A DNA stretch of 62,926 nt, filler included, from Globobulimina sp. (lineage: Eukaryota): the NCBI GenBank assembly GCA_003354225.1. It is 15 parts of 15 records of this genome, joined end to end, with 100 filler letters (N's around TTAATTAATTAA, not from the genome) between each part and the next. Parts side by side here need not be neighbours in the genome. Positions count along the whole stretch, not along the records: positions 12,616 to 16,719 come from PIVH01001605.1; 14 more parts are not named here. One strand, 5' to 3'. The notes below the pieces were generated by a model. That model was given only the letters and a program-made list of their open reading frames with translations, did no database searches and had not been told where the DNA came from. A program made the translations under genes and the position numbers. Below, one piece after another: positions 3,776-25,225 of the stretch; positions within the stretch are counted from its first letter, which is position 1; every line of letters starts with the position of its first letter.

Positions 3776-4295
3776 AAATACTGACAAAAATAAAATAAAA
3801 TAAAATAAAAAACATATATCATACTCCTTCATCATACACTCATATTTTATGCATGCAATTTATATTTCAACTCCTAATTTTAATGACTAATAACCTGTAT
3901 CTTCTGTTTATGTCTTATTTTTTAAATGAATGTGCTTAATACATTTTATCCATACCTGCTTTTATAAATTTGTGTTTTTTTTTTCTTATTTCGTTTTTTT
4001 CCCTTTGTTTGAAGTGTATTCATTTTTTTTCGATGCGCCATATGAAATGAGTGGGATTTCATAGCTTTTTTTTTCTTTATTTTAATGATATTTAATTGCT
4101 TAAACNNNNNNNNNNNNNNNNNNNNNNNNNNNNNNNNNNNNNNNNNNNNTTAATTAATTAANNNNNNNNNNNNNNNNNNNNNNNNNNNNNNNNNNNNNNN
4201 NNNNNTTATAAAGAGTAACTAAAAATAAAAACACCACGAGGACAGTTACTGTACATCCTCAGCTAAAAAAAAATTGCAACCATTTATTCATCTTC

Positions 4296-5027
4296 TTACA
4301 ATAATTTTTGAATCTTTTTGAGAAATACAGACTCTTTGATAGCATGTGAATTTTTGATTGCAGATGCGAATAACAGTGTTAGTATTGAGACATACAGTAT
4401 TGAACTTCGGTTGAAAATCTTTGAAACAATAAAAAAGAAACATTGATGCAGGATAAAGCTAACCAACGCGTCAAATGTGAACCATTTTTCTTTTCTCCCT
4501 TGTTGGTGATGTTGTGCGTGTTGGTAAGCACATGATGAATGTTCATGAAGCCAAAAGCCCATAATACCAAATCCGAATTTTAAAACCAAATTCGGACTTA
4601 GCACAGGGATTGATAGCGAAATTACAACAGGAATAATAAATTGAACGACGCAATCAACAGGATGCATGTAAAAAAAATCTAATCCAACAGTTTTTTGTAA
4701 TGAGTGATGGATTTCGTGAAAATGCCAAAAGCAATCGAAATTGTGCATTGCCATGTGCGCAATAAAAATAAGTCCATCAAAAATGACACAGAATAAAATA
4801 ATCTGACTTGTTTGGTAAGATTCTGCTTGTGTGAATGAATCAAATACATTTGTTTTCAACACTGGAATCAACATTGATGCCAACATGCACAGTAACAGAT
4901 TGAGAATGCATAATTTCCATCTTTTTTGTTGATAAAAATCAGTGTAATTATCTCCAGATATCCATCCGATTGTCACGCCGGTTACAGTGGCAATCAAAAC
5001 CAGAGCTGGCATGTCAGATACATCCAT
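4296..5027 (-). CDS. Fatty acid hydroxylase / sterol desaturase family protein
   Basis: His boxes HMAMH, HEIHH, HEH and HAQHH, MHPVD motif, TM segments. Confidence 0.75.
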   Translation of the reverse strand: MDVSDMPALVLIATVTGVTIGWISGDNYTDFYQQKRWKLCILNLLLCMLASMLIPVLKTNVFDSFTQAESYQTSQIILFCVIFDGLIFIAHMAMHNFDCFWHFHEIHHSLQKTVGLDFFYMHPVDCVVQFIIPVVISLSIPVLSPNLVLKFGFGIMGFWLHEHSSCAYQHAQHHQQGRKEKWFTFDALVSFILHQCFFFIVSKIFNRSSILYVSILTLLFASAIKNSHAIKESVFLKKIQKLL

Positions 5028-5867
5028 CTTTTTTGATAGTAACTTCTGTTTGGTCGAAAGAACTTGGGAGTTTTTCAAACGATTATTTAGTGAGAACTTA
5101 TTTAAAACTTTGTTTTTATTACTGCGGAATTATTTAATTAATCACCTAATTATGTTTCTCAGATTTAATTTCATAATTGACAAAAGTCTGAACTTTGCAG
5201 CTACTTAATTATAATTAATTATGTAGTTAAATCTGCACTGACAACAACTGTACATAATCAATATTTATTTCATTGTTTTATCAACAGCACCAAGCTGTCA
5301 TGGGTTAAATTTGAAATAAAGGAAGGAAGGATATTAATAAATATTATAAATATTCAATATGATTTGTCAGGTTCATTACAAACAGCAATTGTGCAATATT
5401 TTCCAACCAAAAACGACAAAGCTTTAGCATTATTTTAATTGGAAGCAATATGAGTATGTTTCAGTTTGGCATGATGTTTAGTGGTAATATTGATGATTGG
5501 GTAATTCTTAAATCTATATCGGTACAAATAATTCATTTAACTTCGAATGCTAGGTTCAAAACCACTCTAGCTAACCAAAAACTTTTCTAATCGTTGAAAT
5601 GAAACGAAACGAAACGAAACTAAGCCAAAAAAGTTAATTATCACCTTTTGCAAATCATGTTTTAAATTCGTGATGTATAGAATATTACATTCATACGCCC
5701 ATATAATATAAACATCTTCTTCAAAATACTAAGAAATCAATTCCAAAGTTGAAGTCCGACCACCACAATGAAAATTAGCTAAATTTATAGTTAACGAGAT
5801 AAAATAATTATTTTTCATTGCTCGATTAACTGTTCGATCTAAAGTATTGAACAATTATCATCGCGCA

Positions 5868-7016
5868 TCACTGGCAGTGGTCTGAACTTTCATCATCTGA
5901 CTGATTTTCATTTAATACACATTGAAAGCCATAAAAATAGTCACTTTTCGCTTGGTATCCTCGCAAAAACAACATTAAATTGGTCAAATATCCTTCATCA
6001 AAACTAATTGCTCCATCCGAATGATGCGATGCATTATTTCTCCCATTATTAGGTCTCAGCTCTTCAAAGTATTTCATAAATTTTTCATTTGCTCGTGGTT
6101 TAATCATTTCATATGTTGTTTGATTCGTTACCGCTAAATACAAATGAAAAAATAATCCCATCAATGGAGCACTAATATTATACAGCAGACACAGCAAAAC
6201 TAGGCACCACACAATCCATCCAACAATGATAGGGTACTGATTAATGGTATTCAAAATCAACAAATCAACACTAATATAAATAGCAATAACATATATAATG
6301 CTCTCCAATGCTGTTGAAAGTAAAAAATAGCGGTGATTATATGCACCGATTGAGTTTCCTATCGCTGTGCTATAATGATCAAAGACAGCCACACAAGCAT
6401 CAATATCATAGTCATGTTTTGAGCGTATTGGTCTCACAAATTTGCAACGCCAACAAAACGCTCCGGGCGCATCATCTGGATCGATACAAATTGGTTCAAA
6501 ATCATGTTTATAATTATGTGCTAATTGAGTGGATTCATTTGGTGTAATTAAACCATCCGAATTCAAAGCTATGTCTGCTTTTGGAATAATGGCAGGATCA
6601 CTCAATGAAGTTTGTAAAAACACTGCAATGGAAATAAGTTGAATTACATGCAATATTATGTTGAAAACGTATGCATTGTTGGTTGCAATATTTCTGCTCA
6701 ATTTGGAGTATTCAAAAGAATAAAAAATGATTCCAACAGCAATTTGAGCTGCGATGTATTCAGTTCTAGCGACAAAAGCAAGATAACGCGCAAATGTTGT
6801 TTCTCTTTGTAATGCCGATGAAATGTCTGGAGCGCATGAACAGCAATCTTTACTTTCTTCGATAGCCATAGTTCGCATCCTGACCTGATTGGCTCTATGT
6901 TTCTTTTTTGAGAGCTGTTTGCTTCTCTTGACAAATAATCGCACGATATATGGTGCTATGATGAGAACTGGAGCTATGCACCAAATAATCGGTGTTGCAA
7001 TTGACAATGCAGACAT
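5868..7016 (-). CDS. DHHC palmitoyltransferase-like protein with DHYS variant motif
   Basis: SDP, CWRC..RPIRSKH, FDHYS..IGNSIGAYNHRYF, NQTTYE (TTxE) and FDEG..NL (PaCCT-like) motifs. Confidence 0.8.
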   Translation of the reverse strand: MSALSIATPIIWCIAPVLIIAPYIVRLFVKRSKQLSKKKHRANQVRMRTMAIEESKDCCSCAPDISSALQRETTFARYLAFVARTEYIAAQIAVGIIFYSFEYSKLSRNIATNNAYVFNIILHVIQLISIAVFLQTSLSDPAIIPKADIALNSDGLITPNESTQLAHNYKHDFEPICIDPDDAPGAFCWRCKFVRPIRSKHDYDIDACVAVFDHYSTAIGNSIGAYNHRYFLLSTALESIIYVIAIYISVDLLILNTINQYPIIVGWIVWCLVLLCLLYNISAPLMGLFFHLYLAVTNQTTYEMIKPRANEKFMKYFEELRPNNGRNNASHHSDGAISFDEGYLTNLMLFLRGYQAKSDYFYGFQCVLNENQSDDESSDHCQ

Positions 7017-7037
7017 CACAAAAGAAGGAGTTTTTCT

Positions 7038-7955
7038 TCAAATTTGTTGTTGTGGCTGGTTTAAAATGCGTATATTTTGTAATATCCATCTTCTATGATT
7101 TGCATCTCGAACACCATAATCTTGCAAATCGAGCATAGAGACATATTTTAAATCGGAACCAATAATTCCATCCTCAATAAATTGTGCTTTTAATGTTTCC
7201 ACATATTTAAGCATTCCAATCTGCTGTAACCATTTCATAATATTATCCACATTCCATTCATTCACATTTTTATTACATTCAAAATTAAACGCACTCTTCT
7301 TTGACAAATGTATCTTTTCCTTTTCTCTTTTCCTCTGATTCATATTGGATATGTTATTAACATTATTCTTATTGTCATATTGTTCAATATCTTGCTCATC
7401 ATTGCCGTGGTCAATGTCATTAAATTCATTCTCATTGTTATTATTTAATAATTGTAATTGTTTGAAATATTGTTTCCGATCATTTAGACTCATTTTCATA
7501 TAAAAAGCACGTTCCTTTGTTTTCAAACTATCCCATTCACTTTTTAATTGTTGCAATTTTAATTGATTGTTATTTTTTTTTTTACCATTTACAAACAATT
7601 CGAATGCAGTTCGATATGGAACGATACTCTTTGTCTCTTTATCATTCCTTTTACATTCAATTATTTTACCATTAGTATTTACTTTGCATTCAGTTATAGG
7701 ATTTTGGCAAACATTCATGATTTGACCACATTCAGAATGAGAACACTGGATAATTTGCGCCGATGGTGGATAATGCAATTTTTTATTACATCCAATGCAT
7801 ATCATTATATATTCGGAATAAGGCATACATATTTCATTGCAATTTGCACATTCAATGATTGATGAGTTTCTCAGGCAACACAGCTTTTGTTTGCATTTAT
7901 GACAATGGAAAAAAAATAATTCCGAGTTGCGTGAAGTAGCTATGTTTGTAGTCAT
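7038..7955 (-). CDS. Protein with two LSD1-type zinc fingers, an HMG box and a SAM domain
   Basis: CxxC..L.YPPSA..IQC..C repeats; TAFELF...EWDSL..KERAFY..MS..DR..Y (HMG); WNVDNI.KWL..IGM..Y...F..DGI.G (SAM). Confidence 0.65.
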   Translation of the reverse strand: MTTNIATSRNSELFFFHCHKCKQKLCCLRNSSIIECANCNEICMPYSEYIMICIGCNKKLHYPPSAQIIQCSHSECGQIMNVCQNPITECKVNTNGKIIECKRNDKETKSIVPYRTAFELFVNGKKKNNNQLKLQQLKSEWDSLKTKERAFYMKMSLNDRKQYFKQLQLLNNNNENEFNDIDHGNDEQDIEQYDNKNNVNNISNMNQRKREKEKIHLSKKSAFNFECNKNVNEWNVDNIMKWLQQIGMLKYVETLKAQFIEDGIIGSDLKYVSMLDLQDYGVRDANHRRWILQNIRILNQPQQQI

Positions 7956-7963
7956 TATCAGCA

Positions 7964-8310
7964 ATGTTCAAAAAAAACCCTCAAACAACACAGAGATTAC
8001 TTTCACTAAAAGCTGAATATGGTTTGTTCATCGACGGCAAATTTGAGTCCAGTTCAGATGGCTCGACATTTGATCTTCAAAACCCAGCAACTGGTGATAT
8101 GTTATGTAAAGTAGCTGATGCTCGACCGGACGATGTGAATAAAGCAATACAATGCGCATATGAATCATATATGGATGGGAGATGGAGGAATATGGATATT
8201 CGTCAACGATCGTACATATTATATGCGGCAGCTAGTTTATTGAAAGAATATGTGTATGATATTGCATACATGGAATCACTGCAAACCGGGAGGCCAATCC
8301 GTGAGATGAA
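7964..8310 (+). CDS. Aldehyde dehydrogenase, N-terminal part (3' truncated by contig end)
   Basis: LFIDGKF, NPATG, DVNKAI, MESLQTGRPI motifs. Confidence 0.85.
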
Positions 8311-8410
8311 NNNNNNNNNNNNNNNNNNNNNNNNNNNNNNNNNNNNNNNNNNNNTTAATTAATTAANNNNNNNNNNNNNNNNNNNNNNNNNNNNNNNNNN
8401 NNNNNNNNNN

Positions 8411-8824
8411 GTGTTACGAGGTATAGGTTTTGTTGGTAGTCGGCAGGATGATTTTTGTGATGTTTCTCGGTTTAATGATGTGACAAGTATCATATTTGAA
8501 GGTTTATTGAACAATAAAATTAAATGGCATTTAGAAAATTGTCATTTTGTGCCACAATCTAATTTTATATATTATAGAAAAGAAAAGATAATGAAACATG
8601 TGATAAGATTTGAAGATTTGGAAAATGAATTTATTGCTTTGTTAGAGTTGTTCGAGGATACAAGAAATATCACCAAGAGTGATTTAACAAATCCATTGTA
8701 TTTAAGAGAAAGACATCCGAGTAACTGTTTAAATTTGGTCGTGGATGATATCAATGCAACCAATAAACAACTGATAAGGCAATATTATGTGGATGATTTT
8801 GAACACTTTTATCCAGCATTGTAA
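8411..8824 (+). CDS. Sulfotransferase family (Sulfotransfer_2-like), C-terminal part
   Basis: HFVPQ, IRFEDLENEF and IRQYYVDDFEHF motifs. Confidence 0.65.
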   Translation: MLRGIGFVGSRQDDFCDVSRFNDVTSIIFEGLLNNKIKWHLENCHFVPQSNFIYYRKEKIMKHVIRFEDLENEFIALLELFEDTRNITKSDLTNPLYLRERHPSNCLNLVVDDINATNKQLIRQYYVDDFEHFYPAL

Positions 8825-9089
8825 AAACAAAAACAAAAACAAAAAAAACCTGGATTAACTCACTCATGATCAAGCTCAATATTCTTTTCGTATTATTTTT
8901 AATATATTTATATATCTCCTTTAATTTTTATGCTTCCCACATATATTCCATTATCTTTTTTCTTTTTTACAGTTGTTATTGTAATGGTTATTGATTGCTT
9001 GCATCATCTCTTTATTTATCCAAACTTTCCTTATCATTATATTCTTTCGTATATTTTATATTTATTTTTATTCTCTCTATATTTCTTTA

Positions 9090-9255
9090 CAGTGATAAAC
9101 TTTTTGAGTTCTAGTTTTTTTCACATTTGTGGAAAACTACTTTACTTTAAATTTAACTCCTGACGAAGACAGCATTTGTCGAAACGTCGAACTATATACC
9201 CTTGTTTGAAAATAACCCTTTCTAGAAACAAACACCTCTACAAAACCCTTAACAT
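9090..9255 (+). mobile_element. Solo Penelope-like element repeat (pLTR) remnant
   Basis: Aligns by eye with 45360-45510, including an identical CCTGACGAAGACAGCATTTGTCGAAACGTCGAACT core. Confidence 0.7.
9157..9192 (+). ncRNA. Minimal type I hammerhead ribozyme motif (copy 1)
   Basis: CTGACGA (9160-9166), stem II GACA/TGTC, GAAA, palindromic ACGT stem III, GUC cleavage triplet; stem I only 2 bp. Confidence 0.7.
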
Positions 9256-9449
9256 TAACCGGTGTAATTAAATTCTCTTCCATTATTCGATAAAGTTAAA
9301 AGTTTTCTACATTTCGACAAAACTACGAGAGTGAAAAAAAAATCACTATATATTTCATAATTATTTAACAAAAAACAAAAACTAAAACATTGATAATCGC
9401 AAATCTTATTCATCATACAGAATAATCAATAATTTCAGTTACAATATAT

Positions 9450-11861
9450 TTATATTTCTGCATTCTCACTACTTTTATGTTCCTCATCCTCATCTTCCTC
9501 CTCCTCCTCAGCTTCATTCAATTGTCCAATCGAATCACCCATCACACTGTTTAACGTATTATCATTGCTATCCGCCCCGCCATCATTCACATTCACCGCA
9601 GAAATGGAACCGCCACCAAACACTCCCATGACGTCATCCCCGTCGATATCCGGTCGAAAGGTAAAGCCCCGAAACAATTCCTGTTCATTTATCTGCGGCA
9701 CTTTATCCGTGAACGTATCCGACGCCTTCTCCTCCAAATACTTACTCGCAACACACGTCGTATCCGCCACATCGTCCTCGTTCTCCATCTGTGGTATGTA
9801 CGGAGCCTCAATATCTTTATCAAACACTTTCTGCCAATCCACGTCGCCAAACCATCGATGCTCTTTAATATCCTCCACATCCCTCACAAATCCCAACCGA
9901 TTTCGCACCTCCCTCTGCAACAACGCTTTGATCAAATCCTGGCAATCCGTCGCGATCCACGACGCCATCATCAATGGCGAGTCAGTTATCTTTTTGTACA
10001 TTTCCGTGTTGGACGAACTGAAAAAAGGCACAATGCCCACTGTCAACTCAAAGGCCAAAATGCCGAAACTCCACCAATCCACATTCTTATCGTAGGCCAT
10101 TTCGCGGATTATTTCCGGTGCCAAATATTCCGGCGTCCCACAGAAAGTGTCCGTCGATTTAGATTTGACGTCCTTTAAAGGCGTATTCTTGAATTCGTCC
10201 GTTTTGTCGCTGTCACCCAATTTCTTACAAAGCCCGAAATCACATAAACAACAATTACCGATTTCGTCCAATAATATATTTTCTGGCTTCAAGTCTCTGT
10301 TTATATGCAATTAAATTATGATATCATGCATTTTCAGAGTTATTTGGTTGAAATAAGTTCAACAGAAACGTTTTTAATATGGTATACAAAGAAGATATAT
10401 GAACAAAAAAAACACATTTTCGAATATAAATACCTGTAAACGATGTTATTCGAATGTAAACATCCGAGCGCTAACAAGATTTGACAGAGTATAAATTTTG
10501 CTTCGAGCTCTGTGAATTTTCGCTTTTTTTTCAAATGGAACATCAATTCGCCGCCGCGATAATAATCCAATACCAAATATAACTTTGCTTCGTTCTGAAA
10601 CGCATAACGCAGCGACATTAGAAAAGGATGTTTGATACATTTCAAAACCTCGCGTTCTGCGTTGATATTCTTCTCCTGCCCCGATGCGATGATTTGCGTT
10701 TTTTTCAAGATTTTCATTGCATAGATTTTGTTATCTTCTTTTTTTTTCACCAACAAAATCTTGCCAAAGGTCCCTCGGCCGATCACTTGCATAAATTCGA
10801 AATCCCTCACTTTCAATTTTTTCGTCTCAAAGCGTCGCCGACGCCGTTTTTTTTTTTACTTTTGTAACTTTCTCTGCCTTTTTCTCGTCTTCTTCCTCTT
10901 CCTCATCGTCGATATCATCTTCTTTGTCAGCTTGAAATAGCACCGCATTTTCATCATAGTTCTCCACATTCAATTTTTCCTTTTTTTTGGATTTGCCCCG
11001 TATGGATTGCCTACTTTTATTCTGTGCGTGATCGGTGTCAGAATAGTCAGAGTATGGTAATATGTCTTGTATATTATCGTCTTTATCCTCCTCAAAAGTC
11101 AGCATTTCATTGAATTCCTTCTCATCCTCATCCCGCTCATAAATCAACTCCACATCGGCTTTGATCAGGGTCTTAATGATGGTTTTGATGTTTTTTGTGT
11201 CCGTTTTGTAGATAAATACATCGATTTGGAACTGCTGCGTTGTGATGATGGTACAACACGGAATCTTATCGAAGGGGATGCGTTTTTGGCATTTTTTGTA
11301 GGAATTGCTCTCATTTGGTTTGATGTTATACAATGCAAAGTTGGTTAGTAGCAATATGCGAGTTTGCTGTTTTTGCTTCGGATTTATTTTTATGATTTGG
11401 TCGGAATACAATATGGTTTCGCCGCTGTGATGGCCCATTCTTGCGATCAATTTTAAGACGGACTCGTTTTTGGACAAATTTAAGTAATCGCGTTTGTTGG
11501 GTTTGTCAGCGTCGTGATGGAGGTAGGAATTTTCGACGTTTTTCATGCTTTGTATCCACTCTTCACACTCGGATTTGAATTTGCATTGAAAGCACCAGAT
11601 CCGTGTTGGCGTTATGACTTCGAAGTTTTTGTTGTCCACAGTGTTCAGACCGATTATTATGGATAAGTCTGCCACGCCTTTTTGTGTTTGTTTTGTTCTC
11701 TTTGTCTCATCCGAGTAATAATATAATTTGCCATCAGTGAACAATTCAAAATATCTTCGCTTCCAATTGGACACAATTTTGCCTTTTTTATACATCCATC
11801 CCGCGTTTACTAGTGTACCTTCAGCTTCGTGGGAGGTTTCTGTTGAAGCCATTAAACCCAT
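9450..11861 (-). CDS. PH-domain AGC (PKB/SGK-like) Ser/Thr kinase; intron 10297-10433, frameshift in A11 run near 10847-10857
   Basis: GWMYKKG..WKRRYF PH domain; IGRGTFGK, YAMK, YR|DLKPEN across a GT-AG intron, DFG, TFCGTPEYLAPE, AGC tail FRGFTF. Confidence 0.9.
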
Positions 11862-12203
11862 TTCAGCCAGCTACTCGACTTAAAAAAACTGTTTTTGTTT
11901 TTAATTATACACTAAGCCGTATCAGAGGCGTCAGAGGACGAGAAATTGAATTGTTGTGCGTCATGTTTGTGTTTCAATTTCTCTCTGTTCTCTTTTAACT
12001 TGATTTTCATGCAACATTTTTTATATTTTTTGCCTGAATTGCATGGACATTTGAGGTCTCAATCGGTTGGGATGCTCAATATGATTGTCGATAAATTGAC
12101 TGATTATGATCAGTTTTGGGTTTTATTAGTATATATTTAGATGAAATTGCTAATTATAAAATTATTCAATCGCTGAAATACTCATTTTTTATTCTGTCCG
12201 ATA

Positions 12204-12515
12204 ATGGCTGCTTTAGTGAATGCAATAAAATTTAGGTATTTGTTTGATCAATTAACAGATGGTGAATGTGATCAATTTATGTCAAAATTATCAAAATTGT
12301 ATGGCACAAAATTTATCGCATCGTTGTTGTTTAATTCATGGTCTTCAAATCCCAAAACTGTGATATCTGATAATAAAATGATTGATATTGTTGGCATCAT
12401 ATCAGATATTATTCAGTCAAGAGACAATCAGCAAGCAAATGATGATATTAATATTGATACAATAAATCATTATTTAATTGGTGAGATTGCATCATATTTA
12501 AATGCCAGAGATCAT
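12204..12515 (+). CDS. Hypothetical protein with F-box-like motif, 3' truncated
   Basis: IDTINHYLIGEIASYL resembles an F-box start. Confidence 0.45.
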
Positions 12516-12615
12516 NNNNNNNNNNNNNNNNNNNNNNNNNNNNNNNNNNNNNNNNNNNNTTAATTAATTAANNNNNNNNNNNNNNNNNNNNNNNNNNNNN
12601 NNNNNNNNNNNNNNN

Positions 12616-13019
12616 CCTCCACCATATTGTATTTATTATATTTAGATAAAGAAATGTTAAATGAATATTATGCGTTTCTAATTATATTAATATCTGGTTT
12701 TGGGATTGGTGCTGAATGCATAAATTTTTCGCTGGTTCGAGAATATAATGCAAAATATGCAACGGAAGAGGTTGCGACAGGATTTGTAAATGCATTGGTT
12801 GTGTGTGGTGGCTTTATTTATCAATATATTGTCGGTGTATTAATTGATTATCACTGGACACAAAAAAATAAAAATAATGATTATGGCGATAATGTTGTGA
12901 GAGTCTATGATGTCAATGATTATCAATTTGCATTTTCATGTGTCATACCATTGTGTATAGTTACTGCTATTCTTACAACTATTTTAATGAAAGAGACAAA
13001 TGGAAAAAATTTGAAATAA
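12616..13019 (+). CDS. MFS transporter, C-terminal part
   Basis: VRE..ATGFVN...GG..YQ..VGVLID, TM helices, terminal MKET. Confidence 0.7.
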
Positions 13020-13124
13020 TCAATGTGTTGAGATAGTGATTGAATGATATTTGCATGCATGTAAAGAATGTGATTGTTTGAGAAAGTGTTGTTTTGTGAT
13101 TTGTATTTCCTTCCTTCACTTAAC

Positions 13125-13485
13125 TTGTCGGACACAGAGACGTGCTCAGTCAGAGCGTGTCTGTTCATATTGGGTCGACACATAACACTCTGTCGTTTGC
13201 ACCCTTTATGTGTTGATGTTTACCATTGACATCCGATCAATTTATTGTCACAATCTGGGATTGCGTTCGCGCTTCCCTTCAACTCACTGCGCATCCGGTT
13301 TTCAACGTCAGATTATTATTGTTTCTGAGAAACGAAGGCAAACCTATATAATTTTTGCCTTTGTCAGTCACCAGAAACGGTTTGCATCTACCTTACCAGT
13401 TAAAATCTGACGCTGAAAACCGGATGTTCTTTTCATTGTGGTGATCGGACTTCACAGTTGCAGCCATGCAATACCTCATTTTTTA
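13125..13485 (+). ncRNA. Candidate structured non-coding RNA of unknown family
   Basis: At least seven nested helices, mostly closed by plus-strand G-U pairs, a UUCG tetraloop and a T6 run at 13479-13484; intergenic and GC-richer than its flanks. Confidence 0.5.
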
Positions 13486-14160
13486 ACACGGTTCCTACGG
13501 AGCGTAATTGATAAGAATCAAAATTTGGATTGAACGCTATATTCAATTTAACTGGAAACCTATGATAAAAAAAAGGGATGAGCACTAGAATTTTGCATGA
13601 CTTCAACTTTTGGAGTTAATTGCTCACCACAATATTGTGTCTGCAGTGTACCGTTTTGTTTTTGTATAATTATTTTGTTGTTGTGAGGTAGCGGCGAGCG
13701 CCAACCTACTTTAACGCATAAATTCTGTCGACTGTTGCAGCACAAAGACATACAACAAGAGAGAATATCAAAGGTAGAATGGAGTGCAATATCCAAAGAA
13801 CAAACTCTCACAGAAAAAACTGTTTGATCCAGTTTCTGTTCAACCAGGTATGTAAAGAGAAAATATATAACAAAGCAACACAAACTTACTCAATAAACAC
13901 AAACCAATCAAAAATAAATATAAAACTTGCACTTATTAAACACGTGCACTTTAATTCAAATCAAATAGAATCTCATTAAAATCACCATATAAAACAATGT
14001 TTGCATGTTATTATTTGAAATTTAATACGTTTTATAATACTTTTCATTAATAGAGGAATTAATACCGCCTCCGAAGCAATGAATAAAATGTTTAAAGTTA
14101 AAAATACTAACTATAAAAAACTTTAATCAGTCCCCTGTGAATCAGTTCGCTGAGTTCAAA

Positions 14161-15722
14161 ATGGATACTGGATTTGATGGACATTATGGAAGGGAGAAGC
14201 GTATGAAACCAGGCAAGACCTTTTATAAAGGAAGAAACAAACAAGTTTCACGAGATAAAAATCCATCACAATGGTCAGCTTATAACAAAGCACCACGCAT
14301 AAAACACGCGGTCCGCCATCACAATCCATTATCTTCTCAATTATCCAAAACGCGTGAAACTGGCATATTATCCACCAAATCATTACCGCGCATTGAGGAT
14401 GAAAGCAACCAAAACAGCGACGATGATGAGAAAAATATCAACGAAGTTAACTTCCTCATTTGTGCTGACTTATCAATTCTCATTTAACTCAAATCATAAC
14501 TTCTCAAAAACAGACATACTTAGACGCCGACGACACAGATAAAATCTTAAAACTCTCCAAACGACAAATAGATGATCACGACCGCACCAACCGCACCAAT
14601 GCAAAAACAAAGAAAAACAGCAAAATCAAACCAAAATCCAAAGCAAAAAGCCAAAAAAAAGCGTTATTTCAAATCAAATCCTCCAACATCTCCTTGCATG
14701 ACATATTAGGCAACGCGGATGCCGACGAAGTACAAAGTAACGTCAGCAACACCGACATGGCACACATGTCCATGTCCGAAGATATAAAATTGACAGCAAC
14801 GGATGAAAAGGCATTGGAAATGTTCATGCCGCGCTCGGTGCGCGAACAAGTCTCTTTGCATGACATTATCATGAAACGTGTGACCAAAAAGGAAGACGAC
14901 AACATCTCTCAATTGGACGCGGAGAAGCTGATTCAGCGCAAAATCCCCAAGAACGTGATCGCAGTCTACATCGATGTGGCGAATATATTGTCGAAATGGA
15001 GGAGTGGCCATTTACCCAAAGCCTTCAAAATCATCCCGCAGTTGCAAGATTGGGAGGAAATTCTGTATGTCACAAACCCGGACAAGTGGACGCCGGCGGT
15101 GGTGTACCAAGGCACAAAATTATTCGCCTCGCAAGCAAATGCGTCCATTTGTCAGCGCTTTTATAATACGATATTGTTGCCGCGGGTGAGGGACAATATA
15201 CTGTTGACTAAGAAATTGGATTTCCACTTATACCAAGCGGTCAGGAAGGCGTTGTTCAAACCGCAGGCGTTTTTTAGAGGCTTTTTGTTGCCGCTCTGTA
15301 TGGATGAATGTGGCGCGAAGGAGGCGGTGATTTTAGGTGGAGTGCTGCAGAGGAATTCCATCCCAGTGATCCAATCGGCGTTGGCCATTTATAAGTTGTT
15401 GGAGTTGGAGTTTAGCGGCCCGGTGCACTACTTTTTGAAGATTCTGCTGAATAAACGGTATGCGTTGCCGATGAAAGTGATTGGTGCGACGGTGCTTCAT
15501 TTCAAGGAGTTTGAGAATGATCCGAGGCAAATGACGGTGATTTGGCATCAGACGTTTTTGGTTTTTGCGCAGAGATATAAGAAATCATTGACGGCGCAGC
15601 AAAGGAATTCGTTGAAAAAGGTGTTGCGGAAACAATTTCATCATCAGATTACACCGCTGATTCGGAAGGAGTTGTTTCAAAATGTTGTGGATAAAATAAC
15701 TTGCATGGATATTGATATTTGA
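14161..15722 (+). CDS. BYSL: Bystin (Enp1) ribosome biogenesis factor; intron 14446-14513
   Basis: RHHNPL..QL, YLD...KIL, LSKWRSGHLPKAFKIIP..WEEILYVT.PDKWT, KALFKP.AFF.G.LLPL, WHQ..LVFAQRYK. Confidence 0.92.
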
Positions 15723-15848
15723 TTGATTTTGCGTTTTTGTGCATGTACGTAGAGAATATGTTGAATTTGATTTAATTTCTCTGTTGACAAAGTATTTTAT
15801 CATGTGAGCTAATCAACATATTTGTATATAATTCAACTCCGTTTTTAA

Positions 15849-16719
15849 TTGAATGAACAAAGACAACCTTCACTCAAAAATCTTTTTTTTTATCAATGGG
15901 ATATATCGTTTAGTCTAATGGAGCCACCACATAACTCGGATCACAAGATAGAAACTATTAATATTACTGACGAACATGAAGTCGATGAAGACATTATTCA
16001 ACACTTACTACTATGTCCATTTCTTATTTGCTATGTCGCGCCGAATATGATTAAGGATGCTATTAATTTTAAATTTGAATTCAATTTATATCTACTCATT
16101 GATGATACGTTATGCCAATACACATTCGTCTCCGCATTCAATGACGTTAAATTACTAAACAATAAATGCTACACAACCTATAACAAATATTTTCCAATAC
16201 ACAAATTCCCATCATGTATTTATTTATAATATATTCTTTGTCATCTATAAAAACTGACTGATACTATCACTCGACGCAATAATATGCAATGTGTACATAG
16301 TAAATACACTGAACAGAAACACCAATGCAAAGAGTTTAATATTGAGCAACAACTCCGTAAAATGGACACATACAGCATTATAGACAAAGAAATGTGCTCA
16401 AGAGATACATCCCATGTCTGTCAAGGTCCAGGTAGAGTTAGTTGGTGGTCTCGAAAAAAAGAACCGCAACACCAAACGATGCAGACACATTAAGCCATAT
16501 ATTATGCAAATTATTGAATTCTTCTGCATTTATATCCAGCAATGAAAGTGATATAATTTTTAACACATTAAAATTGGAGGATAACATAAAATCAATTATC
16601 AAAGAAAAATCAGAACATTTAAACCGGGCACTATCTGATATTTATAAGAACAAGAATGATCATAAAATATTACATGACGATGAATGGAAACATTTTACAT
16701 TTCATACAGTAAAAGCTGT
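15849..16719 (+). CDS. Fragmented hypothetical ORFs (possible pseudogene or TE remnant)
   Basis: Three short co-oriented ORFs with no recognisable motif. Confidence 0.25.
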
Positions 16720-17024
16720 NNNNNNNNNNNNNNNNNNNNNNNNNNNNNNNNNNNNNNNNNNNNTTAATTAATTAANNNNNNNNNNNNNNNNNNNNNNNNN
16801 NNNNNNNNNNNNNNNNNNNGTTTTTGAAGTATATATTCGAGTTTATGGCAATTCAGCTTATGATGAGAAACAAAGTGAGAATGATGAAACCTTCAAAGTG
16901 AATGAATTGAGTCATATAAAGGAGGAATAAGTGACTATTAAAGGTGATAAGTTAAAGTGAACTTTAAAGGTGAACTTAACATATTATCAATAAATTGTCA
17001 ATAAAATGAAATAGCAAATATAAA

Positions 17025-20000
17025 TTATTGACACTGTGGCCAATACCGAATCAATCTTCTATTGTCCATTTCCAACATTTGCCTCACGACAATCATAAAA
17101 ATTTGTTTCCTAAAATATCTGGCAGATGCTTTAATTTTATTTATTGGCACATTTCTTTGTTCAGCAGCAGAATCATTTAAATTTGAATATACCGGATGGT
17201 CCAAATCCTTCCATATTTTTATATTATAAGCGTTGCTGCATGCTTTATGGCAGCCACCTCCATGACATTCGTCATTTGCAGTGACTGTATCCTTGAAAAA
17301 TACAGGTTCTCTTCTTGTTGCGTAGGAATGATGCCTACAGTTAAAATCCGCAATCTGAAGTTTTGGCGGTTTCCGAAAATGGCAGTAAACTGCAGAGAAT
17401 GGGTCATTCAGCCCTTCATGCTTCGGAACAACATGGAATCCAATACAAATTGCGTGAATTGCACATCTCAAGATCCAAATACATCCAATCAATCCTTTTA
17501 ACTCAGTCCAATATTTTGAACAAGATTCATGATCATCATTATCAACATCCTTTTCATCATCCATTTTATAAATAGGCCGGATTCGTTTCATTTTTGCAGC
17601 ATAATATATTTTCTCAATACCTCAACAGATGGAGGTCTTTCAATATCAAATCTTTTCCTTTTATTAATATATTTATTATAAATTCGATTTGATTTTGTTG
17701 CCATTTTAGCCGCCAATAACCAGAAACAATTTGGAATTTCGACATCAAAATAAAAAATAATTATATACATTAAAGGTGACCATTTTTTAATTTGTAATTT
17801 ATTGGATAAAACTTGATCTTTTCCAGCAATAAAATATGGACAAATATTGATTTGAAAACATTGATAAACGCATTCATTCGATCCAAATACTCGTATTATG
17901 GATTTAACTGCTTCTTTATATGTAATACCTTTATGTTTATATTGTTGTTTTAATGTGATATTATCAAATGACTCAATATTTTGTTCAACATAAATCATAT
18001 AATTTTTTAATTCATCATAATCATTTAATTCTAACCATGAAAATAATTGCTGTTTCTCGTTGTTTGTGATTTTATTTAATTTTGTTTCTCTTTTCATTTT
18101 TGTGAACTTTGTTTGATACCATTGTAAATATAATGTCCTATGTTCAACATTCGAAATATAACGGTTTGATTCAGAAACGTTATTACTTATAAAATATTCG
18201 CCATCAAAAATTGTAGTTGGTGGGCACACAGATTGGGCAAATCTTTTTGGAAACGATACACAAACCCCGTCACCAACTAAATTGTCAACTTCACCCTTAA
18301 AGTTTTTTTTTATGCATAAAAACTCACTGTGAACTGAATGAATGGAAACATACTCTTTGATCAGGATTCAATATTCCACGATCACAAAATGGATCAATAA
18401 AATCCCATCGCCAATCTTGCAACATAATAAAAGCCAACCATGCATTTGTCAATGTACTTTGGCACGGAAAACTAACTGGAGAACCATTATCAATGTACAT
18501 TTTATTCATTATTTTATTATATCCATGGCCAGTTACACCAGCATCATGTACAGAATTTGATTTATTATTTAATACTGAGTGATGATATAAATAATTTGTA
18601 TTGTAATTAAATATATGATCTGATAATCCATCATATCTATTTTTGTGATTACATTCTCTGTTTAATAAACCAATTTTATTTTTACAAATAAAATATACCA
18701 CAGTCACTTTATATGCTCTAATTGGAGTAAATAATACAGATTCCTGTTGGACGCGGTCGAAGTCAACAAAGTCAGCGCCACATTTATTACAACTTGTTAT
18801 CTCAGGCCTAATCATATGATTTGTGTATACAAATATTACAAAACTCATATAAAAATATTACATAACTCAAAGGCCGCCAAAAAAAAATCAGATGTACTCA
18901 TGGTATAATTATAATATTCATCGTTAGCTTCATCGGATGGAATTTGAAAATATTCAGGAACCGGAACTTTTTTATATGAATGAGGTGTAATTATTTCAAA
19001 CTCCTTTTCAGGGCCAACATTTCCATCATCGTCAATGTTATATCTTTGTTGATAATATGAATCGGAATCAATTCCTAAATATTTCAAAACAGAATTCCGA
19101 TGATGGCAGCCCTTCACTTTATGTCTATCGCAACAAATACAGCCATCATTGTTTTGATATACAAACGCTTGCCGACCAAAAGCCACAGAATAAACACAAT
19201 TCCTTATTCCTGTTAAGTCATCATTTATTAATATAACTTTTCTTTCTATGTCACAAATTTGATGTGCTTTAAATGTATGTAATAATTTAGGTAATTTATA
19301 TATGCTGTTAAGATTCACATAAATGTCAACAAATAGACAATGAAAACATCGATTAAAACATCTGAACGTATCACAGCGACACCAATGATCGATTGGGTTT
19401 GAATCAGTATTTGTATATACAATGTGATATTTATTTGTAAATCTATTTTTATTGAAATCGTAATCTCTGAGAATGAATGTCGAATCTTCTCGGTCAAATG
19501 CTTGGTTTGTTATAAATAATTGTTCGTAATATGTTTCAAACGATTCTTGTTTGAGTGAGTTACCAATGAAGTAATTTGCAAAACGCATTTGTAATATATC
19601 AGATATTTTGGTATAACCAGATAAGATTGGAAATGAAAGATGATTTGAGAATGAGTTGGGTATTGGGTTAAATATATATTCTTGCGGTGGTAATATTGAA
19701 TCATTACTGTCATTATTATAATGTGGAGGATTTATATTGTTATTATTTGGATGATTTATATCGTTGTTATTTTGATTTGTATTATTAATATTTGAATGAT
19801 GTGTATTTGCAACTGCGATATCTGAATGAGTCCTAAATAAAAATGCATGTTAATAATTGTTTAATTAATAAATACATAAAGCTAACTTCTTTCTACATCG
19901 GTTTGGCATTCTTCTTTTTGTTTTTCTTTCTTTTTGTGCGCTTGTTTGTATTCTTGTTTTTGGTTTTATCGTTTTTGATCCAGTCTTTCTTGTTTTTGCA

Positions 20001-21242: not shown

Positions 21243-23435
21243 CTGGAGCCCGGGCGGCAGTTTAAAGCAGGGACCTTTGACAGCAATTTGAGCTTTATCC
21301 AGGCCCTGACAGAAGCCATGAAACTGGTACCTGATGCTATGTTGTTGGCCTCATTACCTGAATCCGAGTTAGAGGTCGGAGGAACAATGGGACTGCGCAC
21401 TCTAAATTCACTGGAAAAATACTTTGCCAGGGTTGAATCGGTTTGGAAGCCAGTTGCAAGTAGGGAGGCATTTGAAATAGTTCGGCGCCGGCTGTTTGAA
21501 TATGCCGGTGATTCATCTGAGGTAAAAACAATATCCCGCCAATTTTTCGATTATTATCGGGCCAACAGCGAAAAATTCCCCGTTGAAACCCAGTCTAATG
21601 ATTATTATGAACGTTTGTGTCAGTCTTATCCCATTCACCCGGAAATATTTGACCGCCTCTACGAGGACTGGTCGACTTTGGATAAATTCCAGCGTACCAG
21701 GGGCGTGCTACAATATATGGCCATTGTGATTCATCGCCTCTGGAATTCAGATAACCGGGATGGATTGATCATGCCCGGTTCTATTGACCTGGATGATAGC
21801 AACGTTAGAAACAAGAGTATCCATTACTTGCCCCCGGGTTGGGAGCCAGTGATCGAAAAAGAGGTGGATGGCCCCCGCTCAGAACCGACCAGTATTGATG
21901 GGCACGATACACGATTTGGTGGTGTTCAGGCTGCCCACCGTGCCATGCGTACAATTTTTCTGGGCAGCGCACCGGTGTCCACAACTCAAATGGTTAAAGG
22001 ACTCTTGGTCGAACGGATACTATTAGGCTGCGCCCAACCAGAACAGGCAGTAGGGGTGTTCGAGGACGTCTTGAAAAGACTGCGGGACAGGCTACAATAC
22101 CTGTATTCCGATGATGATAGATTCTGGTTGGACACCAAGCCGAATTTGCGCCGGGAAATGGAAAGTAGAAAAAAGCAAATCGATACACAGCATCAATTGA
22201 TACCAATGATTAAGGAACGGGTTCGTCAATTGTTTGGTACCAGCCATTGTTTTTCAGGTGTTCATGTGTTCACCCCTTCCGGCGATGTTCCGGATGACTA
22301 TGGCAACGGACCAAGGCTGGTCGTATTACCACCGGATATCCAAGCCGCATATAGCAAGGCTGACCCAAGCCAAGCGACTAATATTGCCGAAAAGATTCTT
22401 CGTCAGCGAGGAGAGCAACCCCGGCAAAAACAGAATCGGTTATTGTTTTGTGCAGTGGATGTTGATGTGCTTAGCAGGCTCAAGGATTATTGTCGGACCT
22501 ATATTGCATGGAAAGAAATATTGTCAGATATAGATGCGGGGAAACTCAATCTGGATATCTTTCAAATCAACCAGGCTAAAAAACATAAGCAGGCATCAGA
22601 AAAGAGCTTACAACAAATATTGAAAGAAGCCTATAAGTGGATCATCTGTCCTGTTGAAGACTTTGTTCAAGGCAAGCCCAAATTGTCATGGGAAGCTGTG
22701 GCTGTATCGACTTTTGCCCAGGATCTTTCCGCAGAAATAAAGAACATACTTAAAGAAGAAGAATGGCTAATCTCAGAGTGGAGCCCGATCCACCTGAGGA
22801 ACCACCTTAGTCAATGGTATTTTAAAGATGGGATTACAGAAGTAAGTGCTCTTAAGGTTTGGCAAGATAGCTGCAACTACCTATACATGCCCCGACTGCT
22901 CAATGATCAAGTTTTCAAAACTGTGATAGATCGGGGACTAGTCAGCAAGGACTTCTTTGGTTTTGCCTCCGGGAAAGAGCAGGATAAATACCTCGGATTT
23001 GCCTTAGGGACAAGCGCTCTTATCACTATAGATGATGCTTCACTATTAATTGAGCGAGAAGCTGCCATAGATTACCTGGAAGAAAATTCACAAGGACCTC
23101 AGGTGCCGTCAACTGGGTCACAGTCATCAGGGACACCCGGACCTGGTGTTTCCCCGACACCCGATCCTGGAGAGCCTGTTCCAACTAGTCAATCATCGCT
23201 GAAAAAGCAGTTTTATGGCACAGTCGATCTTGATCCAGTGAGAGCAACAATGGATTTCTCTGATATTGTAAATGAAGTCGTTCAGCATTTCACAGCTAAA
23301 ATCGATACGGATGTAACTATAAAGGTTGAGGTCGAAGCCAAGTCATCCAGTGGTTTTGATGAGACCCTGCAGCGAACCATCAAAGAAAATTGCAGTGTTT
23401 TAAAATTTAGTAATGCTGAGTTTGAAGGGGATTAG
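21243..23435 (+). CDS. DUF499-family AAA+ ATPase (bacterial, restriction-like/defence associated), N-terminus missing
   Basis: FIQALTEA, LLASLPES..EVGG, EAFEIVRRRLF, YPIHPEIFDRLYEDW..L..FQRTRGVL, C-terminal FYGTV.LDP and R.IKENC..LKF..AEFE. Confidence 0.85.
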   Translation: MEPGRQFKAGTFDSNLSFIQALTEAMKLVPDAMLLASLPESELEVGGTMGLRTLNSLEKYFARVESVWKPVASREAFEIVRRRLFEYAGDSSEVKTISRQFFDYYRANSEKFPVETQSNDYYERLCQSYPIHPEIFDRLYEDWSTLDKFQRTRGVLQYMAIVIHRLWNSDNRDGLIMPGSIDLDDSNVRNKSIHYLPPGWEPVIEKEVDGPRSEPTSIDGHDTRFGGVQAAHRAMRTIFLGSAPVSTTQMVKGLLVERILLGCAQPEQAVGVFEDVLKRLRDRLQYLYSDDDRFWLDTKPNLRREMESRKKQIDTQHQLIPMIKERVRQLFGTSHCFSGVHVFTPSGDVPDDYGNGPRLVVLPPDIQAAYSKADPSQATNIAEKILRQRGEQPRQKQNRLLFCAVDVDVLSRLKDYCRTYIAWKEILSDIDAGKLNLDIFQINQAKKHKQASEKSLQQILKEAYKWIICPVEDFVQGKPKLSWEAVAVSTFAQDLSAEIKNILKEEEWLISEWSPIHLRNHLSQWYFKDGITEVSALKVWQDSCNYLYMPRLLNDQVFKTVIDRGLVSKDFFGFASGKEQDKYLGFALGTSALITIDDASLLIEREAAIDYLEENSQGPQVPSTGSQSSGTPGPGVSPTPDPGEPVPTSQSSLKKQFYGTVDLDPVRATMDFSDIVNEVVQHFTAKIDTDVTIKVEVEAKSSSGFDETLQRTIKENCSVLKFSNAEFEGD

Positions 23436-23543
23436 AAATATTGGTACGGAATCCTAAATCGATTTTAAAAACTCGGTCGATTATTATTCAAATTTCCAAG
23501 ATGTACTGACCGGTTTAATTATTCGTTAGCTTTTAGGAAAAAA

Positions 23544-24266
23544 ATGCGTGTTGAAAATTCAGAAGGTAATGAAATTTTAAATCTCACCGATTGGGCGAAA
23601 CTTTATGATAAGCCTCAGTCATCTCGCCAGTGGAAAGAACACCGAAGTGCTTATTCCGCTGCTGAATTCATTATGAATCGAAATGGTAGTAACGCAATTC
23701 AATCGCGAATAGCTGATACTTTAGGTACAGCAGTAAACTTTCAACGAGCAATTCCTGAATTTGAAGTACGATTTGATGAATTTGGGCGAGGACGGATACA
23801 CGATATAGCTATCTTCGGCTCTACCGATTCCGGAGAAAGCATCTTCGTTGGTGTCGAAGCCAAAGTCGATGAAACGTTTGGTAGTTTAGTACACGATACA
23901 TATTTAACGGCTAAAGCCAAACAAATAGTCGGCGTTTCAACGAAAGCACCAGAACGGATTGAAAAACTCTTGTCACTGCATTTTTCTGAGCCAGGCATGG
24001 CGATGTTCGATGTTAGATATCAATTGTTGTATGCCACTGCAGGAACATTAGCCGCTGAAGCCGATATTTCTATTTTTTACGTTATTGTTTTTAAAACGCC
24101 CCTGTATAATGAATCGATTGGTGCAGAGAATTACAAGGACTACATACAGTTTATGAGCAAAGTAGGCGCTAATCCCTTAACATTTACCAGTAAAGAGGTC
24201 ATTGGATACGAGTTGTTTTTGAAGCAAAAGAAGCTCATATGCTTGCATGAATATTTCGAAGTTTAA
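23544..24266 (+). CDS. DUF6946-like protein, putative PD-(D/E)XK nuclease
   Basis: WK..RSAYSAA, PE.EV.FD, RIHDIA, VEAKVDETFG, RYQLL.ATAG; AGGA RBS-like site upstream. Confidence 0.65.
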   Translation: MRVENSEGNEILNLTDWAKLYDKPQSSRQWKEHRSAYSAAEFIMNRNGSNAIQSRIADTLGTAVNFQRAIPEFEVRFDEFGRGRIHDIAIFGSTDSGESIFVGVEAKVDETFGSLVHDTYLTAKAKQIVGVSTKAPERIEKLLSLHFSEPGMAMFDVRYQLLYATAGTLAAEADISIFYVIVFKTPLYNESIGAENYKDYIQFMSKVGANPLTFTSKEVIGYELFLKQKKLICLHEYFEV

Positions 24267-24369
24267 CGTCGTTATGAACGTGTGATTAATGGGTACACAT
24301 GGAGATCTGACTATTTGGACAGATTGAAATAGATTAATATCGTTCATTATAATTAAAAAAGGACAGTTT

Positions 24370-25125
24370 ATGAAGCCTGTGTTTGTTGATTTTCACATAC
24401 ATACATCTGACAATCCTGAACGCGTAAACGATTCGTATGATATTGGGGTGTTAAATCATGGTGTGAAGACGATAGCAGATGGTTCAGATTGCCTCATTTC
24501 TCTTACTGATCATAATGTCATTAACAAAGAAGCTTACCTTAAAGCAATTGACGTTTTTGACAATGTACTTCTTGGTGCTGAGATACATGTACGAAACTAT
24601 GACGCTGCTCGGCCATATCATTGTCATATTTTGTTCAACTTTGAAAAAATCAATGAAACGATAATTGATGAAGTGAACCTTAAGTTAGATACTTTATATC
24701 CGAGTAAAGAAGTTGCGCATGATGATACAAGTATTCCTAAGTTAGAAGATATAATGAATTGTTTTGATGAGTATGAATTTCTTCTTCTTCCGCACGGAGG
24801 GCAAAATCATTCTACTTTTGATGGGTCTATTCCAGAAGGTGTGCGATTTGACACAACTCTGGAAAGAAGCATTTATTACAACCACTTCGATGGTTTTACC
24901 GCTAGAAACAATAAAAGTTTGGAAAAAACTCACGAATATTTTACCCGTTTGGGGATAAAGGAATTTGTACATTTGGTAACTGCTACAGATAACTATGAAC
25001 CTTTAAAATACCCTCAATGTAAAGCAGGCGGTCAGGCCTCAGAATTTACACCTACCTGGATGTTGGCCCGGCCAACTTTTGATGGGCTTCGTCTGTCATT
25101 ATCTGAGTCTTCCAGGCTGATATAT
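24370..25125 (+). CDS. PHP-domain phosphoesterase, probably the N-terminus of a PHP-ATPase (Ppl/TrlF-like); 3' truncated
   Basis: DFHIHT, LTDHN, GAEIH, HCHILF, PHG, TDNY, linker TWM...PTFDGLRLSL; AAGGA RBS. Confidence 0.75.
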
Positions 25126-25225
25126 NNNNNNNNNNNNNNNNNNNNNNNNNNNNNNNNNNNNNNNNNNNNTTAATTAATTAANNNNNNNNNNNNNNNNNNN
25201 NNNNNNNNNNNNNNNNNNNNNNNNN

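Follow-up and report, generated by a model that had tools for sequence, protein, structure and literature searches.

A probable divergent U1-type small nuclear RNA gene, adjoining a second U1 gene and followed by foldback repeats, in DNA of Globobulimina sp.

In this work, we analysed a 62,926-nt stretch of DNA from Globobulimina sp. (assembly GCA_003354225.1; the whole stretch is called the window below), and in it the positions 13125-13485, which an initial annotation had described as a candidate for a single highly structured RNA of about 360 nt. The results point to another arrangement: very probably, 13118-13280 is a conserved, divergent gene for a small nuclear RNA (snRNA) of the U1 type, here called the U1-like gene, with a foldback repeat and nested repeats behind it. 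A more canonical U1 gene adjoins it, and the two genes differ in the 5′ arm by which a U1 RNA pairs with the donor sites of introns. The U1-like RNA may read donors that begin with GUUA. For the explanation as a whole, which combines the U1-type gene, the repeats and this donor-class function, we see an even chance of being right. The hairpin that dominates the region is nothing unusual, and it is the U1 paralogue that merits further study.

The window is made of pieces of about 4.1 kb, joined by 14 spacers (44 N, TTAATTAATTAA, 44 N) that lie across 4106-58827, about every 4.2 kb. Open reading frames (ORFs) are cut at the joins, which indicates that adjoining pieces are not neighbours in the genome, and the true context of the region is therefore 12616-16719 only.

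A probable U1-type RNA at 13118-13280

The best Rfam model for the region was U1 (RF00003), which aligned over the whole model (positions 1-166) with 13116-13280 on the plus strand at 31.5 bits, the E-value being 5e-6 in a 900-nt search and 3.5e-4 in the whole window. A second U1 match was found at 13855-13685 on the minus strand (39.2 bits, E-value 2e-8 locally). At gathering thresholds, Rfam gave no match in the whole window, and the U1 hits surfaced in E-value mode only. The initial annotation had reported no match to U1-U6, and this statement is overturned by the full-length alignment and by the second U1 next to it; its broader proposal, a divergent plus-strand gene for a housekeeping RNA, is borne out by the U1-type gene found there. 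The genes and their parts are as follows.

13118-13280, plus strand: U1-like snRNA gene, a divergent U1 paralogue (Rfam U1 alignment, fold and conservation; ends placed at the limits of conservation)
13118-27, plus strand: 5′ end of the U1-like RNA, ACUUAACUUG
13127-32/13232-37, plus strand: helix H (minimum-energy fold and consensus fold)
13138-62, plus strand: stem-loop 1 (minimum-energy fold, covariation)
13166-13210, plus strand: stem-loop 2 (minimum-energy fold)
13211-31, plus strand: stem-loop 3 (minimum-energy fold)
13239-47, plus strand: Sm site AAUUUAUUG, between stem-loops 3 and 4
13257-77, plus strand: stem-loop 4, capped by UUCG (Rfam alignment, conserved)
13853-13685, minus strand: more canonical U1 snRNA gene with the 5′ end ACAUACCUGG (Rfam U1, 39.2 bits)

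The minimum-energy fold of 13118-13280 is a cloverleaf, in which helix H closes off four stem-loops; folded alone, this segment has a z-score of -2.20, with 4 of 200 shuffles equally good. The top of stem-loop 4 follows the Rfam consensus nearly letter for letter, and the GCG-UUCG-CGC hairpin noticed earlier at 13257-77 is this conserved stem-loop. The Sm site AAUUUAUUG is invariant in the three U1-like sequences available (that of the window and those of two relatives described below) and resembles the Sm sites of U1, U4 and U5 in this lineage. The 5′ arm ACUUAACUUG, invariant in the same three sequences, shows two changes against the Rfam consensus ACUUACCUGG; the arm ACUUACCUG, complementary to donors of the GUAAGU type and a criterion for U1, is absent from the U1-like RNA. 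The loop of stem-loop 1 reads GAUCAGCCAG and GAUCACUCAG in the relatives, similar to the loop GAUCAAGCAG of the U1 of this lineage. The loop of stem-loop 2 keeps CACUC of the consensus AUUGCACU, and the UUG before it is variable. Another helix of the initial annotation, 13174-85/13206-17, can indeed form (11/12 nt) but competes with stem-loops 2 and 3, which are preferred over it by the Rfam model, by the minimum-energy fold and by the consensus fold of three sequences.

Conservation, covariation and a shared upstream element

To find relatives, metagenome contigs were scanned once with a pattern made of the 5′ arm and the Sm site. The scan returned 12 loci, by our own estimate a number near the chance expectation. 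BLAST of these loci showed that two contigs, L011 and L003, carry both paralogues at 76-78% identity; the remaining 10 of the 12 were unrelated chance matches. The Rfam scores for the U1-like gene and U1 were 34.7 and 47.7 bits in L011, and 39.1 and 47.9 bits in L003. The two genes are in tandem in both contigs, about 165-190 nt apart, and convergent in the window, 405 nt apart. Two more snRNA genes lie on L011, those of U5 (81.1 bits) and of U4 (78.6 bits), both over their cut-offs; no other snRNA was found in L003. As a side observation, U4 and U5 of L011 (41-474, minus strand) lie directly upstream of the U1-like/U1 pair, such that four snRNA genes fall within 1.2 kb.

In the three U1-like sequences, the 5′ arm UCACUUAACUUGUCGGA, the loop core CACUCUGUC of stem-loop 2, stem-loop 3, helix H, the Sm site and most of stem-loop 4 are invariant. 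The flanks are unalignable upstream of the start and also beyond a few bases past stem-loop 4. Such sharp edges of conservation indicate an RNA of about 163 nt and leave the sequence past ~13280 outside the conserved unit, instead of the unit of about 360 nt proposed initially. The conserved 163 nt are entirely explained by the U1 fold. A telomerase RNA, one example named in the initial annotation, finds no support.

The consensus fold of the three sequences has 52 pairs, with 94.9% of the cells paired. Changes on both sides were found in 9 of the 52 pairs; seven of them belong to stem-loop 1, which has 10 pairs, and the other two to stem-loop 2. When the partners were shuffled, 4.0 +/- 1.4 such changes were obtained, with 1 of 500 shuffles as high; when they were slid by 1-3 columns, 0-2 remained. 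The helix 13138-47/13153-62, already recognised in the initial annotation, is stem-loop 1 of a U1-type fold, and it carries most of the covariation. Taken together, the covariation provides modest evidence for the U1-like fold. It applies to the U1-like part; the hairpin behind the gene has no counterpart in the relatives. In the same consensus fold, the arm can extend helix H through pairing of 13121-13132 with 13232-13244 (12 pairs, none varying); this modelled pairing, if real, could mask both the arm and the Sm site.

Upstream of both U1-type genes of the window we found the same promoter-like motif.

13025-13038, plus strand: GTGT-N6-AGTG of the U1-like gene, 93 nt before its presumed start
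13943-13930, minus strand: GTGT-N6-AGTG of the neighbouring U1, 90 nt upstream

The motif occurs four times in the window (0.92 expected), and two of these copies precede the U1-type genes. On L011 there are five copies (0.06 expected), four of them 90-96 nt upstream of U4, U5, the U1-like gene and U1. On L003 the motif stands 87 nt upstream of the U1-like gene, and the U1 there has the two halves at another spacing. In total, the exact element lies 87-96 nt upstream of seven of the eight snRNA genes detected with Rfam in the window, L011 and L003. This shared element at a fixed distance suggests that the ordinary snRNA promoter of the lineage, of the type found at its U1, U4 and U5 genes, also drives the U1-like gene. 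The initial annotation had considered an RNA polymerase III transcript, which is not supported: there is no T-run at 13278-13300, and the upstream element is common to U1, U4 and U5. Further copies of the motif have no RNA detectable by Rfam about 90 nt downstream, namely 28028-28015 (minus) and 32467-32480 (plus) in the window, 1491-1478 (minus) on L011 and 961-974 (plus) on L003; such copies could have arisen by chance or could mark small-RNA genes that have escaped recognition.

Two donor types and a proposed function

To compare the two arms with actual donor sites, seven exon junctions were used, each fixed by homology or by an invariant protein motif.

14446-14513, plus strand: bystin intron, donor GUUAACU (exons abut gaplessly against the homologues P0008 and P0003)
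from 46698, plus strand: ALDH7 intron, donor GUAUGU (four exon translations abut gaplessly against five homologues, as for the next two)
from 46808, plus strand: ALDH7 intron, donor GUUAUAU
from 47177, plus strand: ALDH7 intron C, donor GUUAUGU
10433-10297, minus strand: AGC kinase intron, donor GUAUUU (kinase catalytic-loop motif restored)
from 39051, minus strand: intron of a zinc-finger gene, donor GUAUGU (C2H2 linker restored)
from 38646, minus strand: intron of a zinc-finger gene, donor GUAUGU (C2H2 linker restored)

In bystin, exon 1 ends with KNINE and exon 2 begins with TYLDADDTDK. The junction in the kinase gene is based on what we take to be the kinase catalytic-loop motif, and both zinc-finger junctions on what is presumably the C2H2 linker. 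The window thus holds two donor types: GUAUGU/GUAUUU in four of the seven introns and GUUA, with U at +3, in three. Eukaryotic donors as a whole rarely have U at +3.

The arm ACAUACCUGG of the neighbouring U1 is the same in all three species and is perfectly complementary to the GUAUGU donors of the window; with this ACAUAC arm, the GUAU donors pair contiguously at 6-8 of 10 positions. The GUUA donors form only 4, 3 and 2 pairs with it in the canonical register. With the U1-like arm, when G+1 is placed opposite C7, the same three donors form 8, 7 and 6 pairs, of which 7, 6 and 4 are contiguous. The clearest case is the bystin donor, which pairs at 8 of 10 positions (7 contiguous) with the U1-like arm and makes 4 pairs with U1 in the canonical register, or 6 with the +3 U bulged. 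The base before the donor is A in two of the three GUUA sites and G in three of the four GUAU sites, as the two arms predict. Furthermore, GTTATG stands at the end of a long ORF in 8 of its 39 occurrences and GTATGT in 7 of 39, against 6.7% (406/6,048) for all GT, which makes GTTATG about three-fold enriched there.

Several other attempts gave no usable result. For two further GUUA candidates, at 62291 and 51937, the translations gave no confirmation; the positions of GTTAA[GC]T (13 sites) were uninformative; and an iterative weight-matrix search for introns at ORF junctions ended in noise and was abandoned. As other identities for the 5′ arm, a spliced-leader RNA, a mimic of the branch site and U11 were rejected, the required complementarity or exon length being missing.

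Based on these pairings, the following mechanism can be proposed. The U1-like RNA would be assembled into a U1-type Sm small nuclear ribonucleoprotein (snRNP), and its 5′ end ACUUAACUUG would pair with a second class of major-type donors, GUUA, preferably after AA, in a register shifted by one base (G+1 opposite C7). The neighbouring U1, with ACAUACCUGG, would serve the GUAUGU class. That the U1-like RNA reads the GUUA class seems to us a little short of an even prospect. We hold still more tentatively to the wider proposal, in which two major-type U1 snRNPs have co-evolved with different donor specificities and the GUUA class is abundant. Considered together, the arm, the altered neighbouring U1 and the GUUA donors make the two-U1 system a concrete and testable hypothesis, if one that we would back at slightly less than even.

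The case for a dedicated second U1 is thin, and a number of observations count against it. The function is based on only three validated GUUA donors, and in two of these U at +5 mismatches the U1-like arm. At ALDH7 intron C, U1 in a bulged or shifted register forms 6-7 pairs, against 6 with the U1-like arm. Other pieces of the mosaic hold five of the seven introns, and none is in 4206-8310, the sole other piece that a repeat ties to the same genome as the U1-like gene. Bulged and shifted registers are, moreover, documented for human U1 (PMC4856993).

These observations lead directly to the alternative that survives best, although we consider it unlikely: the U1-like RNA would be a functional, conserved U1 isoform that has no donor class of its own, with the GUUA donors being read by the ACAUAC U1 in a bulged or shifted register. 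The isoform would then have another role, for example stage-specific expression, regulation of 3′-end processing or action as a decoy. Conservation, covariation and the shared promoter element fit such an isoform equally well, and each of the three GUUA donors, with its +3 U bulged, forms 6 pairs with the ordinary U1. Also in its favour are the variant U1 snRNAs of humans, which are expressed and influence gene expression (PMC3561869, PMC5159530). On the other side, the first ten nucleotides at the 5′ end show no change between lineages with ~23% difference elsewhere in the RNA, which argues for this stretch as a functional pairing surface, and at two of the three GUUA donors, together with the preceding AA, the U1-like arm outdoes any U1 register (8 vs. 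6 and 7 vs. 6 pairs).

A conserved gene or a decaying copy

Contigs of two public runs, one of them called X2 here, were aligned to 12950-13950 at 80% likeness. These data are assembled contigs, which carry neither transcript ends nor strand; X2 is of unknown kind, with a longest contig of 98 kb. Depth is given as the sum over all contigs of one run and indicates many copies, not an exact copy number.

A number of points weigh against the identification of 13118-13280 as a U1-type gene. The scores of the U1-like gene (31.5 bits) and of the neighbouring U1 (39.2 bits) are both far under the curated Rfam value of 69.5; this gathering threshold is also missed by the more canonical U1 of the lineage, at 39.2 to 47.9 bits. 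The loop GCUCAGUCAG of stem-loop 1 in the window copy folds to merely 5 nt. In all three species the loop of stem-loop 2 is without the AUUGCAC of the Rfam consensus, which the neighbouring U1 carries, and the usual U1 proteins might therefore not bind. At 13133, a minority C of the window copy breaks one pair. The consensus fold lets the 5′ arm pair with the Sm-site region, and the covariation comes from three sequences that make two effective lineages. As helix H, stem-loop 3 and most of stem-loop 4 are free of variation, they count neither for nor against the fold. Finally, the single contig that possibly derives from RNA runs across the upstream spacer too and is hence uninformative.

Some of these features would be expected if the U1-like sequence were a decaying U1 pseudogene that still resembles U1. 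The low Rfam score, the altered 5′ end and protein-binding loops, the C-A mismatch 13133/13233 of the window copy and the repeats inserted around it all agree with decay. We nevertheless consider this very improbable. With only about half of its positions identical to those of the adjacent U1, the U1-like gene is not a recent copy of it, yet every helix is kept. Its orthologues stand beside U1 in two contigs and have compensatory changes, an invariant 5′ end and a promoter element of their own, and between the window and the relatives it has diverged about as much as the bona fide U1, and no faster. As judged from the alignment, changes on both sides of a pair are the opposite of the pattern of a decaying pseudogene. 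In run X2, T stands at 13133 in 264.8 of 303.5 depth (9 contigs), restoring a U-A pair, and T is also the state in both relatives; another X2 variant, A to G at 13136, keeps a G-U pair. In contig X1 the body of the U1-like gene has 2 differences in ~135 nt, and the upstream flank about 9 together with a 4-nt deletion in ~90 nt, such that the body is better conserved than the flank. These results speak for a conserved U1-type gene.

Foldback repeats behind the gene

The sequence past the U1-like gene contains two families of foldback repeats.

13292-13426: foldback repeat A, with 23-bp inverted ends 13292-314/13404-426 and smaller palindromes inside (inverted repeat, depth)
13430-13634: foldback family B, with halves 13430-13450 and 13602-13634 (depth, contig joins)
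inside family B: 151-nt element with 16-nt inverted ends 13456-71/13593-608, holding T6 at 13479

Repeat A is 135 nt long, its inverted ends have one mismatch, and it has no ORF. Folded alone as DNA, 13286-13432 gives a z-score of -8.06. The summed depth in X2 is 4,510-18,434 over 13290-13425, against 9.6 at 12950-13017 in the flank formed by the transporter-like ORF, 98-530 over the U1-like gene with its upstream flank, and 220-390 over the other U1; the repeat is thus hundreds of times deeper than the U1-like gene. As many as 30 variant contigs overlap at a single position of the repeat, and the block of high depth matches the 23-bp ends. In one contig (depth 9.35) only 7 letters separate 13281 from 13436, so that the gene stands there without the hairpin, and another contig has 13315-13401 swapped for 5 letters, giving a short-loop form. 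In the relatives L011 and L003, the corresponding spacer has no inverted repeat of at least 12 nt, and no similarity to 13281-13660 was found. There is just one copy of repeat A in the window. We conclude that 13292-13426 is with high probability a high-copy foldback repeat, mobile or at least highly repeated, which is not part of the RNA. A high-copy foldback transposable element with target-site duplications had been named beforehand as the outcome that would speak against an RNA: high copy number, variants and an element-free contig were indeed found, but not convincing duplications, the only possible one being TTC (13278-80 and 13427-29), whose 3 nt are too few to qualify. The element-free contig differs by one further base at the junction.

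In family B, the halves have depths of 971 and 1,670, with 36-76 between them, and contigs join 13450 to 13602, skipping the 151-nt element. The loose ends of 12 and 26 contigs give a consensus of the family. A partial copy (25 nt, 96% identical to 13430-13454) stands at 5772-5746 on the minus strand, behind an unrelated gene; through this shared copy the piece 4206-8310 is tied to the same genome.

The long stem, the seeming long-range pairs and the T-run, all noted in the initial annotation, are due to these repeats. In that annotation, 13125-13485 was one plus-strand structured RNA, possibly a polymerase III transcript, such as telomerase RNA or a new non-coding RNA. The stretch is indeed highly structured (-119 kcal/mol; shuffles give -83.3 +/- 4.8, hence a z-score of -7.45, and none of 100 is as good), but it consists of separate entities, and we regard a single RNA as very improbable, even with this z-score and the T6 run in its favour. 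Most of the fold signal comes from the foldback, a DNA palindrome, for which an almost equal fold of the other strand is expected; the minus strand of the 361 nt has a z-score of -6.06, so that the fold names no strand. Conservation stops at ~13280, and the 3′ two-thirds are high-copy repeats absent from the relatives, the first of which is missing from one contig. The 23-bp stem 13292-314/13404-426 is real, as the inverted ends of repeat A and not as a part of an RNA. The long-range pairs 13232-39/13442-49 and 13249-54/13435-40 are unconserved: their 3′ partners lie in a repeat that the relatives lack, and 13232-37 closes the conserved helix H with 13127-32, in competition with them. Their appearance is explained by the GATCGGA of family B, which resembles the 5′ strand of helix H. 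As a transcript end, the T6 at 13479 fails, since it lies ~200 nt beyond the conservation, in a separate inserted element.

In yeast snRNA genes, a double-strand-specific RNase cleaves downstream of the mature end. A processing signal of this kind could be suspected here, because the hairpin begins 12 nt after stem-loop 4 and its left arm contains GTTTTCAACGTCAGA, resembling what we take to be the consensus of the snRNA 3′-box; it is hardly probable, given that L011 and L003 have no hairpin at the same place (no inverted repeat of at least 12 nt), that one contig has the gene without it and that the element is hundreds-fold deeper than the U1-like gene. The lesson for annotation is that a striking 23-bp stem with most of the fold energy belonged to a repeat and not to the RNA gene.

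Other features of the window

Two protein-coding features flank the U1-type genes within 12616-16719.

up to 13019, plus strand: 3′ end of a transporter-like ORF
14161-15722, plus strand: bystin gene (Pfam PF05291 homologues)

By its proteins, the organism belongs to the sparsely sampled eukaryotes. No named homologue of bystin exceeds 50% identity, and for ALDH7 the best named homologue is that of Reticulomyxa (65%); the top matches in the searches with both proteins were unnamed metagenome or transcriptome proteins at 75-78% identity. A tRNA scan of the window found no genes. At 21243-25173 on the plus strand, three ORFs of 730, 265 and 281 aa are tightly packed on the same strand at ~43% GC; this bacterial-looking block, set among AT-rich eukaryotic pieces, may represent contamination, another organism or transferred DNA.

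Comparison with known systems

In comparison with U1 as modelled in Rfam (RF00003), the U1-like RNA is alike in its length of ~165 nt, in the four stem-loops around helix H, in the single-stranded 5′ arm and in the Sm site before a UUCG-capped stem-loop 4, as well as in the clustering of its gene with other snRNA genes and in their common upstream element. It differs in score (31.5 vs. 69.5 bits), in the arm (ACUUAACUUG vs. ACUUACCUGG), in the loop of stem-loop 2, where only CACUC of AUUGCACU is kept, and in the shortened loop of stem-loop 1 in the window copy. The repeat behind the gene resembles the known foldback or miniature inverted-repeat elements, being short, non-coding and high-copy, with long terminal inverted repeats and presence/absence polymorphism; it differs in having no convincing target-site duplication and no known autonomous partner.

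The human U1 variants are recent copies, a few bases from U1. The U1-like RNA differs from them in being about half identical to its neighbour and in representing a distinct orthologous gene over lineages ~23% apart. The variants are transcribed paralogues, some with altered 5′ ends, and have been proposed to act at non-standard sites (PMC3561869, PMC5159530, PMC10870369).

The 5′ arm of U1 is among the most invariant RNA sequences of eukaryotes. The locus described here holds two old, separately conserved, adjoining U1 paralogues, each with a different altered arm. A Roy-lab preprint on U1 and donor sites (10.1101/2022.06.08.495308) states that compensatory changes are seen in very few lineages, that lineages with GUAUGU donors generally retain the standard arm and that a compensated ACAUAC arm is reported for Physarum only, which has both standard and modified U1 variants. 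Our system resembles U1 of Entamoeba, Mastigamoeba and Physarum, where a changed pairing sequence of U1 fits a changed donor consensus. The neighbouring U1 of the window likewise combines ACAUAC with GUAUGU donors, as in Physarum; the second variant of the window is ACUUAAC and not the standard ACUUAC, and it would pair with GUUA one position off register. The proteins of the window point elsewhere than to Physarum, the closest named ALDH7 being that of Reticulomyxa (65%). In the open-access literature searched, we found no U1 paralogue with this arm and no GUUA donor class, and no paper found there for Reticulomyxa on introns, splice sites and snRNA was concerned with U1 or with classes of donors.

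U11 is the classical case of a further RNA of U1 shape that serves a donor class of its own. In its proposed role, the U1-like RNA would be alike in concept. It differs in the arm: 13100-13135 has no complement of the minor donor motif [G/A]TATCCTT, and the three GUUA introns have neither this motif nor the branch motif TTCCTT[G/A]AC. If the proposal is true, the co-evolution of snRNAs and splice signals would be directly testable in a natural system, and donor classes could be divided among U1 paralogues within the major spliceosome, in analogy to the division between U1 and U11.

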